From assembly GCA_903954165.1 (NCBI GenBank), contig CAJBMK010000052.1, forward strand, positions 11,950 through 35,949: a DNA stretch of 24,000 nucleotides, in the 5' to 3' direction. Shown here one piece after another: positions 4,310-14,590 of the stretch (position 1 is its first letter; every line of letters starts with the position of its first letter). The position numbers and the translations under genes are program-made. The DNA comes from an uncultured bacterium (GTDB taxonomy: Bacteria; Patescibacteriota; Minisyncoccia; Phycocordibacterales; CAJBMK01). The notes under the pieces are model-generated. The model saw only the letters and a list, made by a program, of their open reading frames with translations. It was not told the origin of the DNA and did not search any database.

Positions 4310-4381
4310 CTCCTCGTCGTTCAATGGATAGGACGCAAGATTGCGGATCTTGCAATGTAGGTTCGATTCCTACCGAGGGGA
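4310..4381 (+). tRNA. tRNA-Arg (anticodon GCG), no encoded CCA
   Basis: Hand-folded cloverleaf. Acceptor ctcctcg/cgagggg (one U-G pair). D arm gttc-aatggata-ggac. Anticodon arm caaga-ttGCGga-tcttg. Variable region caat. T arm gtagg-ttcgatt-cctac. Discriminator a at 4381. Confidence 0.85.
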
Positions 4382-4549
4382 CAAAATACAAAAATGACTT
4401 CCATGATTGGAAGTCATTTTTGTATTTTGTCCCCTCGAGCAAGTGCCGGGTGGCACTTGCGGGTAGGAATCGAAGCCCGATTGAGCATTTTATTGAGCGT
4501 CTTCGCGAAAAGAAAATCCAATCGGGGTACTGAACCTGTAAGGTTCGAA
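4382..4549 (+). repeat. tRNA-3'-flank structured element, scaffold type 1, matched to tRNA-Arg(GCG) (copy A1)
   Basis: H1 is a perfect 27-bp hairpin, 4377-4403/4408-4434, extended by cga/tcg. H2 is gcaagtgcc/ggcacttgc at 4439-4447/4452-4460. gtaggaatcgaa (4463-4474) is the reverse complement of the tRNA T-loop and T-stem at 4362-4373. P3 is cccgattg/caatcggg at 4476-4483/4519-4526 and encloses a hairpin tipped gcg-tctt-cgc. The 3' module gtactgaacctgtaaggttcgaa lies at 4527-4549. Confidence 0.7.
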
Positions 4550-4795: not shown

Positions 4796-5743
4796 ATGTT
4801 AACCAAACGACAAGAAGCCGAGCTGGTCACCGCTGTCCAAGGTAGAGGAGAGATTCCGCTGAAGTTTGCCTATATCGGAGATGGTGCGAAAAATTGGGAT
4901 ACTATTGCAAAAGAGAGAAGTGTAACTTCTGGCGGTATAAACTCAACTGAAGCAAGTCTCTTAAAAAGACGGTTGAATGATTTTGTATCAACGTTGAAAA
5001 GTGATAAGGGGATTAATATTGTCGATATTGGTTGTGGAAACGGCGTGCCCGCTATCCCTGTTTTACAGTATCTATCTGAGAGAGGTATTCCTTTTGCCTA
5101 TGTACCAATGGATATTAGTCAGGAAATGCTTGATTTGGCTATTGTTACTATTAAAACAAGGTTTCCAAATGTGATCTGCAAGCCGTTTCAGATGGATTTT
5201 GAATTAGGACAGTTTTCAGATGTGATGTATGAAATAAAAAAAGATGGTTCGGCTAATCTAATGTTGTTTTTGGGAAGTACGCTTGGAAATCATTCTGATT
5301 TAAGTCGTGTGCTCACTAATTTTCGCGATTCGATGACATCAAAAGATTATTTAATTGTCGGTGTAGAGCTAACCAATCTTGCAAAAATAAACAAGATAAT
5401 TCCACATTACGAAGGGTTGCAGATTAATATGTTTGTTGGTCATACATTGCGATACTTACATATTTCAGAAGGTGTGTTTACGTGTGGAGTATCGTGGAAT
5501 GACAAATTGTCTCAAATTGAAATGAGGGCAAATTTTACAGGCGATATTCGTGCCGAAATTGGAGGAGATTCATTTTTGATTGAAAAAGGTGAGAGCATTC
5601 TTTTGGCTCGATCGATTAAATTTACAGAATATACGGTCACAAAACTTTTCTCTGATGTAGGATTTAGAACTGAATTGCTAACAACTTCAGAAGATAGGGG
5701 ATATATCCTTACAATGGTTCAACCAACAAGGTACAGTATTTAA
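4796..5743 (+). CDS. SAM-dependent methyltransferase of the EgtD-like (histidine N-alpha-methyltransferase, Methyltransf_33) family
   Basis: 315-aa ORF. IVDIGCGNG is SAM motif I. YVPMDISQEML, LFLGSTLGNH, IVGVELTN and WNDKLSQIEMRANF align by eye with the conserved EgtD blocks (YxPxDVS, FLGSTIGN, LGTDL, WNxxxxRIEM). Confidence 0.7.
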   Translation: MLTKRQEAELVTAVQGRGEIPLKFAYIGDGAKNWDTIAKERSVTSGGINSTEASLLKRRLNDFVSTLKSDKGINIVDIGCGNGVPAIPVLQYLSERGIPFAYVPMDISQEMLDLAIVTIKTRFPNVICKPFQMDFELGQFSDVMYEIKKDGSANLMLFLGSTLGNHSDLSRVLTNFRDSMTSKDYLIVGVELTNLAKINKIIPHYEGLQINMFVGHTLRYLHISEGVFTCGVSWNDKLSQIEMRANFTGDIRAEIGGDSFLIEKGESILLARSIKFTEYTVTKLFSDVGFRTELLTTSEDRGYILTMVQPTRYSI

Positions 5744-11032: not shown

Positions 11033-11521
11033 TTATTGTATATTTCTCGCTAAAAATACAATCAAGAACGGTAAAATTATAATAATAGCCGCAACCCCAA
11101 AATAGTCATACCAGGGCGATCTAAAGAGAGATGTAACATTTTGTAAAAATGTGGCGTAGACTTGAGAAATATAATGTTTATAGGTATAAGCTTTTCTTTT
11201 TCCTAAAAAATATTGTAGAGATGCGATAGTTGGAATTGATAATACACAAAGAAATATCATCGTGACACACGCAAAAAAAGATAGAGAATTTATGCGTCCT
11301 AAAATGACCAGAAGAGAAGAAAAGATTACAAAGACAGAAAGGTGGTAATCCGTCATCTCAGAACGCCAGTTCGAGCTAAACCTCATGAAATTTATTATTC
11401 CATCTACTACAATAGGAATTCTTTTGGTGTAGTCAAATTCAGACCAAGGATTTGCCGCATGCACAATTCCCATTCCCAATAAGGGCAATGATAGAATTAG
11501 ATAAATAGTTATTAGGGTCAT
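11033..11521 (-). CDS. Hypothetical polytopic membrane protein (AT-rich block)
   Basis: 162-aa ORF with about 4 hydrophobic segments. It lies in the AT-rich segment. No family recognised. Confidence 0.5.
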   Translation of the reverse strand: MTLITIYLILSLPLLGMGIVHAANPWSEFDYTKRIPIVVDGIINFMRFSSNWRSEMTDYHLSVFVIFSSLLVILGRINSLSFFACVTMIFLCVLSIPTIASLQYFLGKRKAYTYKHYISQVYATFLQNVTSLFRSPWYDYFGVAAIIIILPFLIVFLARNIQ

Positions 11522-11834: not shown

Positions 11835-12016
11835 AGGTGCGCCGATTACATCAATAGGTACTTTTTGATTTTATTTTCGTCTGGGAAGACTCAATAAAAT
11901 AGCGAAAAGTCTTTCGAATCTCACGCGCAAGCAATGCGGGCGGATTGCTTGCTCTCATCCGCCTAAAAAATCAGCACGCGTGGAGTGTGTGATTTTTAAT
12001 AGCGGAGAATGTTGGT
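11835..12016 (-). repeat. tRNA-3'-flank structured element, scaffold type 2, Ser-matched, detached from any tRNA (copy S3)
   Basis: Read on the minus strand: attaaaaatcacacactccacgcgtgctgatttttt (H1), ggcggatgaga, H2 gcaagcaat/attgcttgc, gcgtgagattcgaa, P3 actttt/aaaagt, and P4 attttatt/aataaaat tipped gtct-tccc-agac. About 11912-12010 is a near copy of about 14233-14325. The 3' module is degenerate. Confidence 0.6.
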
Positions 12017-12068: not shown

Positions 12069-14054
12069 TTATTTAAAAATATACTCTCCTTTAAATACTT
12101 CAAACTTCAAAACTTCCTTTTCTTGCATTTCGGTTTCTGCTATTTTTGTTAATTTTATTTTGTACTGTTTGCATATATCTTCTAATAAATCATAATTACC
12201 TAAATCGGTAGAAAATCCAATCAAAATTTCACCATTCTGTTTTAAGTATTTCTTACAATCCTTTAAATATTTTCTTATTGCACGATAACCGGCATCAAAA
12301 AATTGAGCGTCTTCCATTGTTATGTTTGTTCCCGGGTCCATAAAACCAAATGGCATAGCCCAAAAAATCACATCAAATTTTTCTGTTTCCGGTATACCGT
12401 CCAATACATCACCGCTCGTGGCCTTGATTCTATCTTCTACTCCAATTAGCTTTGCGTTGTATAAAGTATTCTCCGGGGCAAATGGATTTATGTCTGTTGC
12501 AAAAATCTCTAAGCCGCTATTTTCTTTTGCAAGATAACAAGAAATAATTCCTGACCCGCATCCAACTTCGCAGAAATATTTCTTATCTTTAATAAGGCCG
12601 TTTACAACTTCTGCATACCACGTTGTTGATGGGAAGTATGATGGATTAAAAACTGCGGGGTGCACAGAATATGTGCTACCAAGAATCGTTGCGTTTACCC
12701 AATCCTCCTTTTTGTTTTGATTTTGGAAGGTTCTTGTTTGTTCTATTCCTGCTTGTATTGGATCATCAAAACGAATTAACTGCGTTAGGTATGTTTTTAT
12801 TTTATCAGTATCAATATCGCCATTTGTTTTTAATTTTGTTTCTGCGTCAATGGAAAAATTAATCTTGAAATATCTTCGTAATTCAAAGTAGTTATTTAAA
12901 TCATCCGGTCCAAATCCCCCAAAAATTGCAATGTCGTTTAGGTCGTATGTTAATAAATTATTTATTTTGCTAATTAAATTTTCTTTGCTTTCCTGAATAC
13001 CTTTTCCTTTGCTATTGTCTAGTAATATAAATGCTTTATTGTCTTTAATTAACGTTCTAAAATTCTCGTCTTCGATTAAATGGATATTTTCATCATCAAG
13101 CGGAATATCCGCCAAAAAGTTCTCAGTAACATACTTTACGAAGCGTAAGTTATCTTCTGTATTAAAATCGTTTGTTTGTAAATACTTTACAAAAGGTAAC
13201 TCATTTTTAATTCTTTCTGTGTCTAGGATTTGATTGTTTGAATAGGTATATGAAAAATGTAAGATAGGAACGAATCCCTCATAAAATTCGCACACCTTAA
13301 AAATATCCTCTACATTTTTAAGTTTTTCTTTATTTTGAAAATCCCTTGAATCAAATTGTACCCCTATACAGATTTTTAATAGGGGATCTTTTTTCTTATT
13401 TTTCAAAAACTCGCCTATTTCTTCGACGGTTTGAGGTTTGTCTGCGTGGAACTGATAGAAATAATAGCTTACTTCTTGGCTGAAAAAATGTTTAAATTTA
13501 GATTTTTTTGTCTCGAAATATTTTTTATTTACATCATTTAATCCCACAATTAAAGACCTTCTTTCAACGATCTCAATTCCAGTCTTTGCAATTTCGGAAA
13601 CTTTCGACGGATTGTTTGTTAAAAGAATTATTTGATTTACACCGAGGTCATTTAAGGCGACTTTGACCATCTCATATGTTCTTTCATCCGGGTTGTGTCC
13701 AAGCATTACGTTTGCCTCAAACGTATCATAACCTTTTGCCTGTAGTTTGTACGCTTTTATTTTTTCATATAGTCCGATACCGCGACCTTCCTGTCTTAAA
13801 TAAATCACACATCCGTTTCCGTTTTTTTGTATTTCAATCAAGGCTGTCTCAAGCTGTTCTCCACAGTCACATTGTAGGCTTTGAAAAACATCTCCCGTCA
13901 TGCATTCACTATGAACTCTGGTTAAAATCGGCTCTTTTGGATTAAGATGCTCGGTATAAACCACAACGGTTTCTTTACCGTGATTTTCCGCATATACGCG
14001 AAAGTTAAATTTTCCTAATTTAGTATTTATAAGTGATTCTGAAAATTTCTTCAT
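12069..14054 (-). CDS. Three-domain fusion: GTP cyclohydrolase II (RibA) + TrpF/PRAI-like TIM-barrel domain + class I SAM-dependent methyltransferase
   Basis: 661-aa ORF. Residues ~1-195 align with RibA along their length: RVHSECMTGDVFQSLQCDCGEQL carries the zinc Cys triad, and RQEGRGIGLYEKIKAYKLQ, GYDTFEAN, DERTY and LLTNNPSKV also match. The middle domain has KICIG, ILLDNSKGKG, IAIFGGFGPDDL and FSIDAETKLKTNGDIDTDKIKTYL. These mirror the PRAI blocks KICG, LLD..GGSG, LSGGL.PENV and VDVSSGVE..G.KD..KI..F. The C-terminus has VGCGSG (motif I), ATDINP, and IFWAMPFG at the position of the NPPY-type motif IV. Confidence 0.8.
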   Translation of the reverse strand: MKKFSESLINTKLGKFNFRVYAENHGKETVVVYTEHLNPKEPILTRVHSECMTGDVFQSLQCDCGEQLETALIEIQKNGNGCVIYLRQEGRGIGLYEKIKAYKLQAKGYDTFEANVMLGHNPDERTYEMVKVALNDLGVNQIILLTNNPSKVSEIAKTGIEIVERRSLIVGLNDVNKKYFETKKSKFKHFFSQEVSYYFYQFHADKPQTVEEIGEFLKNKKKDPLLKICIGVQFDSRDFQNKEKLKNVEDIFKVCEFYEGFVPILHFSYTYSNNQILDTERIKNELPFVKYLQTNDFNTEDNLRFVKYVTENFLADIPLDDENIHLIEDENFRTLIKDNKAFILLDNSKGKGIQESKENLISKINNLLTYDLNDIAIFGGFGPDDLNNYFELRRYFKINFSIDAETKLKTNGDIDTDKIKTYLTQLIRFDDPIQAGIEQTRTFQNQNKKEDWVNATILGSTYSVHPAVFNPSYFPSTTWYAEVVNGLIKDKKYFCEVGCGSGIISCYLAKENSGLEIFATDINPFAPENTLYNAKLIGVEDRIKATSGDVLDGIPETEKFDVIFWAMPFGFMDPGTNITMEDAQFFDAGYRAIRKYLKDCKKYLKQNGEILIGFSTDLGNYDLLEDICKQYKIKLTKIAETEMQEKEVLKFEVFKGEYIFK

Positions 14055-14127
14055 AGAAAATATTATACTATAAATTTATATAACAAGCCTAAAATAGGTA
14101 TAGAATCCTATTTTATAACAGGGTTAA

Positions 14128-14316
14128 TGGTGGAGGAGGTGAGACCGCGAGTACGCTTTTCGAAGCTTACAGCTTCAGTACAGGTTTCCCATTTTTTCAC
14201 GATAGGAATCGCTCAAAAATAGGGGAGAACCTTTTCGAATCTCACGCGCAAGCGAAGCAGTTCGCTTGCTCTCCTCCGTCTAAAAAATCAGCACGCGTAG
14301 GGTGTGCGATTTTAAT
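14128..14316 (-). repeat. tRNA-3'-flank structured element, scaffold type 2, Ser-matched (copy S2)
   Basis: Read on the minus strand: H1 aaaatcgcac...gtgctgatttt, gacggaggaga, H2 gcaagcgaa-ctgc-ttcgcttgc, gcgtgagattcgaa, P3 aaggttctcccc/gggaaacct, P4 attttt/aaaaat, and the module gtactgaagctgtaagcttcgaa. A 14-nt insert follows, then the tail tctcacctcctccacca (plus strand 14128-14144). Confidence 0.7.
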
Positions 14317-14500
14317 TGCGGAGGAGGTGAGACCGCGAGTACGCTTTTCGAACGTTACACGTTCAGTACCCCGATTGGATTTTCTCTGCGTTGGGAAACT
14401 TGAGAAAATGCTCAATCAGGCTTCGAATCTCACCCGGAAGTGCTCCCAGCACTTCCTCTCCTCGCGCCAAATCAAAACCGCCCTGAAAGGCGGTTGGATT
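14317..14500 (-). repeat. tRNA-3'-flank structured element, scaffold type 1, Ser-matched (copy S1)
   Basis: Read on the minus strand directly after the tRNA-Ser CCA: H1 aaccgcc-tttcag-ggcggtt (plus 14476-14495), flanked by ccaaatc/gatttgg. Then ggcgcgaggaga, H2 ggaagtgct/agcacttcc (plus 14436-14456), gggtgagattcgaa, P3 cctgattg/caatcggg, and P4 attttctc/gagaaaat tipped gtt-tccc-aac. The module is gtactgaacgtgtaacgttcgaa. A 14-nt insert follows, then the tail tctcacctcctccgca (plus 14317-14332). Confidence 0.7.
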
Positions 14501-14590
14501 TGGCGGAGGAGGTGAGATTCGAACTCACGACACCTGTAAAGGTGTGACGGTTTTCAAGACCGTTGCTTTAGACCGCTCAGCCACTCCTCC
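14501..14590 (-). tRNA. tRNA-Ser (anticodon UGA), class II with long variable arm, CCA encoded
   Basis: The reverse complement reads ggaggagtggctgagcggtctaaagcaacggtcttgaaaaccgtcacacctttacaggtgtcgtgagttcgaatctcacctcctccgcca. Acceptor ggaggag/ctcctcc. Anticodon arm acggt-ctTGAaa-accgt. Variable arm cacc-tttaca-ggtg. T arm gtgag-ttcgaat-ctcac. Confidence 0.9.

Follow-up and report, generated by a model that had tools for sequence, protein, structure and literature searches.

The 24,000-nucleotide stretch of DNA analysed here (the window) derives from an uncultured member of the Patescibacteria and carries, on its reverse strand at positions 12069-14054, a gene whose product joins three enzyme domains: a GTP cyclohydrolase II (RibA), a barrel assigned to the phosphoribosylanthranilate isomerase (PRAI or TrpF) superfamily and a methyltransferase of the type dependent on S-adenosylmethionine (SAM). 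The open reading frame (ORF) is uninterrupted, with an ATG start, 661 codons for amino acids, a stop codon at 12069-12071 and no in-frame TGA in the window's copy. The gene and its domains, with the evidence on which each is drawn, are as follows.

12069-14054, reverse strand: whole gene, 661-residue three-domain protein (ORF list, full-length homologues, ratio of non-synonymous to synonymous differences, pN/pS)
13476-14054, reverse strand: GTP cyclohydrolase II (RibA) domain, residues 1-193 (Pfam, NCBIfam, 2bz0 alignment, invariant residues)
12747-13475, reverse strand: divergent (β/α)8 barrel of the TrpF (PRAI) superfamily, residues 194-436 (AlphaFold, Foldseek, transitive homology, combined alignment)
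12072-12746, reverse strand: class I SAM methyltransferase of HemK/N6AMT1/MTS type, residues 437-661 (Pfam, NCBIfam, structural model, Foldseek)

An earlier note on this DNA, made from the letters alone, gave the gene the same coordinates and quoted motifs including KICIG and ILLDNS; both agree with the ORF list and translation. It also raised the possibility that a frameshift or an assembly chimera had joined separate genes. That explanation is ruled out by many independent full-length homologues together with uniform purifying selection. A search of 5.8 billion proteins revealed more than 120 independent clusters, at 90% identity, with the same three-domain layout of approximately 660 residues. 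The homologues, which come from many independent assemblies, have 650-700 residues, share 52-86% identity with the query and cover 99-100% of it. The clusters belong mostly to Patescibacteria and Chlamydiota and, where the databases name the proteins at all, the name is 'GTP cyclohydrolase II' and in some cases even 'RibBA'. The window gene was tested for selection against L043, the closest homologue compared at the DNA level. Synonymous sites are saturated (pS approximately 0.75), the non-synonymous differences per site are 0.067 in the RibA domain, 0.063 in the middle domain and 0.107 in the methyltransferase, and the pN/pS ratio of each domain lies at about 0.09-0.14. Strong purifying selection thus acts on all three. 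No Pfam or NCBIfam model spans the full protein or its barrel, and with the whole protein as query the INPHARED phages gave just ordinary RibA or RsmC matches.

Certain close homologues (L001/L009, JAUIDC010000001.1; L044; P0011; P0010; P0130) display Trp at positions where Gly is otherwise invariant, for example EWRGIW and WWFWP. Translation of their loci does not reproduce the query. We take this to be recoding of UGA as Gly (genetic code 25) in those hosts.

The N-terminal domain was described in the earlier note as a complete RibA, and the description is upheld. Residues 6-166 match the Pfam GTP_cyclohydro2 model (PF00925) with an E value of 8e-55 and 185.3 bits against a cut-off of 23.3, and the curated NCBIfam cut-offs are exceeded by both NF001591 (240.2 bits against 148) and TIGR00505 (228.4 against 205.85). 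Escherichia coli RibA (2bz0) aligns end to end with residues 2-191 (E 6e-47). The HSEC...CDCG, EGRGIG, YDT..AN and DER blocks are all present and invariant in 41 aligned homologues, as are the zinc ligands Cys51, Cys62 and Cys64 (within 13860-13910), Tyr102 and Arg125. These residues line up with Cys54, Cys65, Cys67, Tyr105 and Arg128 of 2bz0, which we take from structural work to be the zinc triad and the catalytic Tyr and Arg of the E. coli enzyme. The domain is, to judge from these matches, a complete GTP cyclohydrolase II.

The middle domain had been read as a TrpF-like triosephosphate isomerase (TIM) barrel. An AlphaFold model built on 29 homologues, with a mean predicted local distance difference test (pLDDT) score of 82, contains eight β/α units, and all the top matches listed by Foldseek against the PDB are TIM barrels. 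With respect to family, residues of approximately 195-460 are without a match in Pfam, in NCBIfam and among the PDB sequences, and the PRAI profile matched only one of 29 fusion homologues (E 0.16). Direct comparison with TrpF by hhalign was insufficient alone and a bridge was therefore built through intermediate sequences. When 1.84 billion representative proteins were searched with a profile, 118 relatives of the barrel emerged, about 60 of them stand-alone proteins of approximately 250 residues. The fusion barrel aligns with this stand-alone group over 220 columns (hhalign probability 99.9%, E 2e-32), and the stand-alone group aligns over its full length with four solved TrpFs (195 columns, 97.9%, E 5e-13). 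When a HMMER profile of the stand-alone group is compared with 177,635 PDB sequences, TrpF chains are the sole matches under E 0.01 (best 9e-6), and stand-alone members scoring 40.7, 31.4, 28.3 and 24.0 bits pass or approach the Pfam PRAI gathering score of 22.7. We consider this transitive evidence decisive. Since the stand-alone group links the fusion barrel to TrpF, the middle domain belongs, on sequence relationships, to the TrpF superfamily as a deeply diverged branch. The earlier assignment holds for the fold and, through intermediates, for the family; a direct profile match was not obtained.

The conserved residues of the barrel include His266 (strand 3), Gln293, Asn295 and Asp296 (strand 4), Asp346, Ser348 and Gly352 (strand 6), Gly379 and Gly380 (strand 7) and Asp403 and Glu405 (strand 8). 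A combined alignment reveals that the Asp of an LLD motif (Asp346, the motif being encoded at 13017-13025), the strand-4 Gln, the strand-7 Gly pair and the strand-8 Asp are kept from the fusion barrel through to TrpF, and Asp346, the Gly pair and Asp403 are invariant. Asp346 is the acidic residue of ILLDNS, proposed in the earlier note as catalytic, and indeed it aligns with the strand-6 general acid of TrpF, Asp126 in Thermotoga maritima. The companion proposal, that the Cys of KICIG (Cys229) is the catalytic Cys, fails: this residue is placed on strand 2 of the model, aligns with the TrpF strand-2 sequence AVGFVF and is replaced by Phe, Leu, Gly or Tyr in homologues. The position of TrpF Cys7, the strand-1 general base, is occupied by Gln, Tyr or Phe in the fusion family and by Thr or Ser in the relatives, and there is no Arg at the position aligned with Arg36, which binds the anthranilate carboxylate in TrpF. 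The fusion family and the stand-alone group have an invariant set of their own, made up of the strand-3 His, the strand-4 Gln (joined by a conserved Asn), an Asp-x-Ser...Gly segment following strand 6, the Gly pair and the strand-8 Asp. The barrel thus looks fit for catalysis; judged on these residues, it acts on a substrate other than phosphoribosylanthranilate and uses a base different from that of TrpF.

The C-terminal domain matches the Pfam MTS model (PF05175) at residues of approximately 489-634 with 38.7 bits against a cut-off of 23, and several generic class I models also match. The NCBIfam matches all lie under their curated cut-offs (PRK14968, 65.6 against 162; PrmC, 48.5 against 199; RsmC, 23 against 295), and the domain does not reach an equivalog-level score for PrmC, Mtq2, RsmC or PrmA. 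SAM motifs I-III are intact (EVGCGSG, ATDIN and GDVLD). Motif IV reads FWAMPFG (12345-12365) and is FWA(M/L)PFG in all members of the family, replacing (D/N)PP(Y/F). The model of the domain (pLDDT 86.5) includes an N-terminal β-hairpin, and the top Foldseek matches are Asc-Orf2, HEMK2/N6AMT1 (KMT9), HemK/PrmC, TrmM and RsmC, the matched PDB structures being 6ped, 6kmr, 1vq1 and 9l4q with template modelling (TM) scores of 0.65-0.72. As modelled, the domain adopts an N-methyltransferase-type fold in which the acceptor pocket is altered, in line with the N-methyltransferase with a non-canonical motif IV that had been described.

Does such an enzyme act on a macromolecule, whether a protein Gln or Lys, rRNA, tRNA or DNA, with the RibA and barrel domains forming a GTP-sensing or GTP-consuming module? 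The nearest families, PrmC/HemK, N6AMT1/KMT9, RsmC, TrmM and the defence methylase Mad2, would be in keeping with this. However the amino-group-binding (D/N)PP(Y/F) is swapped for A(L/M)PF, and a small-molecule carbamoyl N-methyltransferase (9l4q) is among the best structural matches. The RibA catalytic residues are all kept, and the methyltransferase is fused to, or in an operon with, two consecutive small-molecule enzymes, which argues for a metabolic chain. A macromolecular target therefore appears very unlikely and the substrate is probably a small molecule. A role in defence was also considered and rejected, because nothing supports it beyond a generic methyltransferase-domain match to Mad2 given by PADLOC.

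The interpretation we favour, with a probability of about one half, is that the 661-residue protein is a self-contained three-step enzyme that converts GTP to a pterin-type compound and then to a methylated product, and does not serve riboflavin synthesis. Sequence and structure show what the domains are, that catalytic residues are conserved and that the modules are genetically coupled; we infer the Amadori rearrangement, the closure of the ring and the acceptor of the methyl group. In the first step, which is well supported by sequence, the RibA domain would hydrolyse GTP to formate, pyrophosphate and 2,5-diamino-6-(5-phosphoribosylamino)pyrimidin-4-one (DARPP). TrpF-type enzymes carry out the Amadori rearrangement of N-ribosylamines, the type of compound to which the RibA product belongs. 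In the second step the barrel would open the ribosylamine and, by Amadori rearrangement, form a 1-deoxyribulosylamino ketone. The invariant Asp346 of strand 6 is the candidate acid and the base would be family-specific, with the strand-3 His266 as the probable stand-in for TrpF Cys7. Closure of the 5-amino group onto the ketone would then give 7,8-dihydroneopterin 3'-phosphate. In the third step the HemK/N6AMT1-like domain may use SAM to methylate a nitrogen atom in either the pterin or the pyrimidine from which it is formed. The most attractive site, as a reasonable guess, would be the 2-amino group, which is chemically equivalent to guanine N2, the target of the MTS enzymes RsmC, RsmD and RlmG.

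A precedent for the first two steps was overlooked in the earlier note. Purified E. coli RibA and Chlamydia trachomatis TrpF together take GTP through DARPP to 7,8-dihydroneopterin monophosphate (H2NMP), as confirmed by liquid chromatography-mass spectrometry, and so bypass FolE/FolQ (PMC4161248). Because this route has been shown experimentally a pterin is the most likely product class and, since the fusion can be regarded as a 'Rosetta stone' for the two-step RibA and TrpF route, the likeliest intermediate is the pterin or the open-chain ketone that precedes it. The GTP cyclohydrolase II and the TrpF-family barrel are both present, fused or operonic, and would act consecutively. A methylated end product is predicted because the methyltransferase partner is kept, and N-methylation because the fold family of that partner suggests it.

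Several observations weigh against this interpretation. For the barrel, Foldseek puts triosephosphate isomerase, TrpA (tryptophan synthase alpha) and KDO8P synthase ahead of TrpF, with E values of approximately 1e-6 to 1e-5 and TM scores of about 0.5. A Pfam search with the window protein gives no PRAI (PF00697) match for the barrel, and direct hhalign comparison of the fusion barrel with the four solved TrpFs aligns just strands 6-8, in the segments LLD, GG.P and S.D.E (P = 0.013). The catalytic Cys7 and anthranilate-binding Arg36 of TrpF are both missing, and the reaction could therefore differ. The methyltransferase lacks (D/N)PP(Y/F), the motif that positions the amino nitrogen in its closest relatives, which weakens the assignment of the acceptor atom. 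Finally, no folate, queuosine or other pterin-using gene is found near the fusion in any locus examined.

The barrel might then catalyse some other reaction on DARPP, such as N-glycosidic cleavage to a triaminopyrimidinone and ribose 5-phosphate, dephosphorylation or a retro-aldol reaction, to leave an aminopyrimidine for methylation. The loss of the TrpF base, the purely generic TIM-barrel matches in the structure search and the family's own invariant residues (His on strand 3, Asn/Asp on strand 4, Ser/Lys after strand 6 and Glu on strand 8) are consistent with such chemistry. Nevertheless the sole significant homology is with an Amadori isomerase family, the acidic Asp and the phosphate-binding Gly-Gly and strand-8 loops are retained, and TrpF itself takes DARPP (PMC4161248). 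We regard a different reaction as unlikely.

The three-step conversion of GTP to a methylated pterin can also be considered in the light of the other arrangements in which its modules are found. These comprise RibA-barrel proteins of 430-510 residues, barrel-methyltransferase proteins and stand-alone barrels. At loci with the two-domain RibA-barrel form a gene of approximately 230 codons is directly adjacent in eight of nine cases, often with overlapping stop and start. Half of the eight encode MTS methyltransferases and the other four belong to a second methyltransferase-like family, with a weak resemblance to the SAM-binding half of the methyltransferase domain. In L006/L007 the gene for a 443-residue RibA-barrel protein overlaps the start of that for a 226-residue MTS methyltransferase by a single base, and the FWAMPFG motif is present in the adjacent MTS methyltransferases of L006/L007 and L029. 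The conserved natural fusion and the split operon forms give strong evidence, at the genome level, for repeated fixation of the route in evolution as a dedicated pathway.

Carriers of the barrel are few, only 32 of 185,579 species-representative genomes, and they are drawn from several classes of Patescibacteria, from Chlamydiota and from a small number of metagenome-assembled genomes labelled Gammaproteobacteria, Bdellovibrionales or Flavobacteriaceae; OY969414.1, JAUIDC010000001.1 and JAUHQI01 are examples of carriers. In Chlamydiota the fusion is part of a conserved small cluster with three other genes, which encode a Methyltransf_11/25-type enzyme, an MTS paralogue (motif FWNHPF) and an MFS transporter of the metabolite/H+ symporter family. 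The composition of this cluster suggests that the product is multiply methylated or that a co-substrate is imported.

L002 12026-14928; L005 9994-12039; also L025, L026, L027, L030, L036 and L037: loci with the Chlamydiota cluster

In Patescibacteria the neighbourhood of the fusion is different in each genome. Large serine recombinase genes lie within approximately 10 kb of it in seven loci (L010, L013, L016, L024, L029, L033 and L034), which would fit a gene carried by integrative elements. In its behaviour as a mobile accessory cassette among Patescibacteria, and in its place within a small cluster of methyltransferase and transporter genes in Chlamydiota, the gene points to a specialised metabolite or cofactor and not to core metabolism.

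Forms with additional N-terminal domains were also observed. Two-domain proteins of 503-508 residues have an extra helix-turn-helix of XRE type, and proteins of 769-770 residues a winged-helix-like extension. TrmB-type regulators adjoin the gene in six loci, which are distinct from those with the N-terminal domains.

L029 9197-10723; L033 9197-10708; L010 2113-4422; L017 205-2517: loci with an extra N-terminal DNA-binding-like domain

The locus L008 (1-16735) holds a stand-alone barrel of 244 residues and a stand-alone RibA of 207 residues, 4 kb apart in an apparent biosynthetic cluster with an FAD oxidase, DUF6884, a Vut_1/YhhQ-type transporter, NUDIX, ATP-grasp enzymes, a fatty-acid desaturase and a thioesterase. 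The Vut_1/YhhQ-type family presumably imports queuosine precursors. This transporter and the NUDIX gene are in accord with another explanation, in which the protein is a housekeeping replacement for FolE (and FolQ) that supplies dihydroneopterin phosphate for folate or queuosine (7-deazaguanine) in genomes without FolE, the methyltransferase being auxiliary or regulatory. Exactly this role has been shown for unfused RibA and TrpF in Chlamydia (PMC4161248). Yet a methyltransferase partner, needless in a plain substitute for FolE, is fused or adjacent in nearly every version, and neither fol nor que genes occur close by in any locus examined, with fol genes absent from both the 24-kb window and the loci of approximately 20 kb. 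The patchy, island-like spread with recombinases nearby is moreover atypical of core cofactor synthesis. Replacement of FolE is, in our view, distinctly unlikely.

The methylated-pterin interpretation must also be set against toxoflavin, to which the earlier note had drawn an analogy, and against riboflavin. Toxoflavin and pseudoiodinine clusters (tox and psd) combine GTP cyclohydrolase II and N-methyltransferases with a RibD-like deaminase/reductase, a WD40 protein and a SUMF/TRP-2-like protein (PMC9911603), and the databases label the fusion protein as RibA only. These facts might favour an azapteridine pathway of the toxoflavin or pseudoiodinine type, or ordinary riboflavin synthesis. However the RibD-like, WD40 and SUMF-like genes that are needed, and RibB, RibH and RibE genes, are absent from the window and from every one of the approximately 40 neighbourhoods examined. 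Among the window ORFs scanned (most of those of at least 100 residues) there is no riboflavin, folate or queuosine family match, in agreement with the earlier remark that no other riboflavin genes are present. With their partner genes missing both readings were rejected as extremely unlikely, and the toxoflavin analogy falls with them.

The gene was previously noted as standing alone in foreign-looking DNA, and its surroundings support that view. It has a G+C content of 33% compared to 42-46% in the flanks, and is bracketed by repeats beside a tRNA gene. The features of this region are listed below.

14501-14590, reverse strand: tRNA-Ser, anticodon TGA (ARAGORN; Rfam tRNA, 62 bits)
14233-14313: upstream copy of the bracketing direct repeat (repeat families D2-D4, 82-100% identity to 11912-11996)
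11912-11996: downstream copy of the bracketing direct repeat, approximately 85 nucleotides (repeat search)
14124-14499: two tandem units of approximately 188 nucleotides, each starting with a copy of the tRNA-Ser 3' end (repeat search, sequence reading)

The tandem units repeat the 3' terminal 15-17 nucleotides of tRNA-Ser, and part of the unit recurs across the gene. The tRNA-end core GCGGAGGAGGTGAGA occurs at 14130, 14318 and 14503, three copies where 0.02 would be expected by chance, and a degenerate copy (TTAATAGCGGAG) at 11997-12008 follows directly on the downstream repeat. We interpret the tandem units as att-like remnants between tRNA-Ser and the gene. The tRNA is likely the integration site, because its 3' end faces the cassette. 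The arrangement has the anatomy of a low-GC cassette of one gene, placed at a tRNA that serves as a hot spot for integration. An integrase is not found near the window cassette. The bracketing repeat was not found in any other locus compared and is therefore taken to be local to this genome. Rfam identified only four tRNAs in the window, and a scan for promoters and terminators gave nothing informative.

Two other ORFs of the window deserve mention. The first (11033-11521, reverse strand, 162 residues, approximately 34% G+C) encodes a hydrophobic, membrane protein-like sequence with no family match; situated immediately beyond the cassette and its bracketing repeats, it may belong to an older insertion. 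The second (4796-5743, forward strand) matches the histidine-specific methyltransferase family (Methyltransf_33; EgtD/EasF-like) with 96 bits, under the EgtD equivalog cut-off, and occurs just after a tRNA-Arg (4310-4382) in another G+C dip. An ergothioneine-type N-methyltransferase would be unusual for a reduced genome.

Stand-alone relatives of the barrel, of the kind used as a bridge to TrpF, are present in the phage-like contigs L041 (7001-7765), L042 (2975-3850) and L045 (20001-20723), the last being LR745208.1, a 485-kb uncultured huge phage. The phage-type barrels and the fusion family have the His/Gln/Asp/Gly-Gly/Asp set in common. No RibA is within reach of the barrel in these three loci. 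A nucleoside deoxyribosyltransferase-like gene is near the barrel in L041 and L045, the former having in addition NUDIX, NAMPT, Ro60 and CCA-adding enzyme genes as neighbours and the latter Macro and metallophosphatase genes. PHROGs holds no family for the fusion barrel or its phage-type relatives, and no relative of the fusion barrel was found in the IMG/VR viral contigs.

What is new here, and why might it matter? The individual chemistries are known, and the combination of RibA with TrpF has one experimental precedent. Literature searches returned no description of a fusion of RibA, a TrpF-like barrel and a methyltransferase, just the Chlamydia paper (PMC4161248) and unrelated items. The novelty lies in a conserved, mobile and uncharacterised fusion with a predicted methylated product, and in a TrpF-derived subfamily. 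The pterin route through RibA and TrpF has so far been shown once and was there interpreted as enzyme promiscuity. The fusion offers a single, easily expressed protein for tests of this route. From the obligatory methyltransferase partner we predict a methylated metabolite of the pterin type, missing from current pathway maps. Patescibacteria and environmental Chlamydiota have small genomes with few biosynthetic genes, and anything retained or acquired is likely to matter for symbiosis. This analysis delineates, in addition, a TrpF-family branch that carries no annotation, differs in its catalytic set and reaches huge phages, and it corrects the systematic mislabelling of these proteins in databases as plain 'GTP cyclohydrolase II' or 'RibBA'.

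We tentatively go further, with a proposal that is possible rather than probable: the gene would be a mobile one-gene pathway that turns GTP and SAM into an undescribed N-methylated pterin or ring-opened aminopyrimidine, serving as an effector, signal or special cofactor in the ultra-small, symbiotic Patescibacteria and in environmental Chlamydiota. The barrel would represent a new TrpF-derived enzyme family, in which His of strand 3 substitutes for Cys of strand 1, with stand-alone members in huge phages. A pterin route independent of GTP cyclohydrolase I would, if this is true, be a widespread dedicated pathway and not a chlamydial accident.

Comparisons with known enzymes and pathways place the fusion in context. 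The RibA domain resembles E. coli RibA (2BZ0), with identity of approximately 45-50% over residues 1-193 as judged by eye on the alignment, the zinc triad, Tyr and Arg kept and a score above the equivalog-domain cut-off; it differs in being fused to two more enzymes and in having no other riboflavin genes alongside. The middle domain and TrpF (PF00697; 1NSJ/1LBM, 4AAJ, 1V5X) are both (β/α)8 barrels with the strand-4 Gln, the strand-6 LLD Asp (the general acid), the strand-7 Gly-Gly, the strand-8 Asp and a C-terminal G-x-(K/I)D helix cap in common. In contrast to TrpF the window barrel is approximately 40 residues longer, gives no direct hidden Markov model match, is without the Cys7 base and Arg36, has its own invariant His (strand 3) and Asn-Asp (strand 4), and is encoded with no tryptophan-pathway genes nearby. 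With the HemK2/N6AMT1-PrmC-RsmC group and Asc-Orf2 (9L4Q, a carbamoyl N-methyltransferase) the C-terminal domain shares the fold, the N-terminal β-hairpin and SAM motifs I-III, but its motif IV is A(L/M)PF and not (D/N)PP(Y/F), and it scores under every equivalog cut-off.

The predicted overall transformation, namely opening of the GTP ring, release of formate, Amadori rearrangement and ring closure to a dihydroneopterin phosphate, is the same as that of GTP cyclohydrolase I (FolE). The folds are unrelated, however, the work in the fusion would be divided over two domains, and the product would be a monophosphate, subsequently methylated, in place of a triphosphate. Of particular value is the comparison with the C. 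trachomatis bypass (Adams et al. 2014, mBio, PMC4161248). There also a GTP cyclohydrolase II is paired with a TrpF-family barrel, and the chemistry expected for the fusion is the same, from GTP through DARPP, Amadori rearrangement and ring closure to 7,8-dihydroneopterin monophosphate. The lineages overlap, many carriers of the fusion being Chlamydiota. The chlamydial TrpF still isomerises phosphoribosylanthranilate (PMC4161248) and is for that reason taken as canonical, whereas the window barrel is deeply divergent and lacks Cys7 and Arg36. No folBKPA cluster is near the window gene. The enzymes that are separate in C. trachomatis are fused here, and a SAM methyltransferase is attached or adjacent in nearly every version of the window family.

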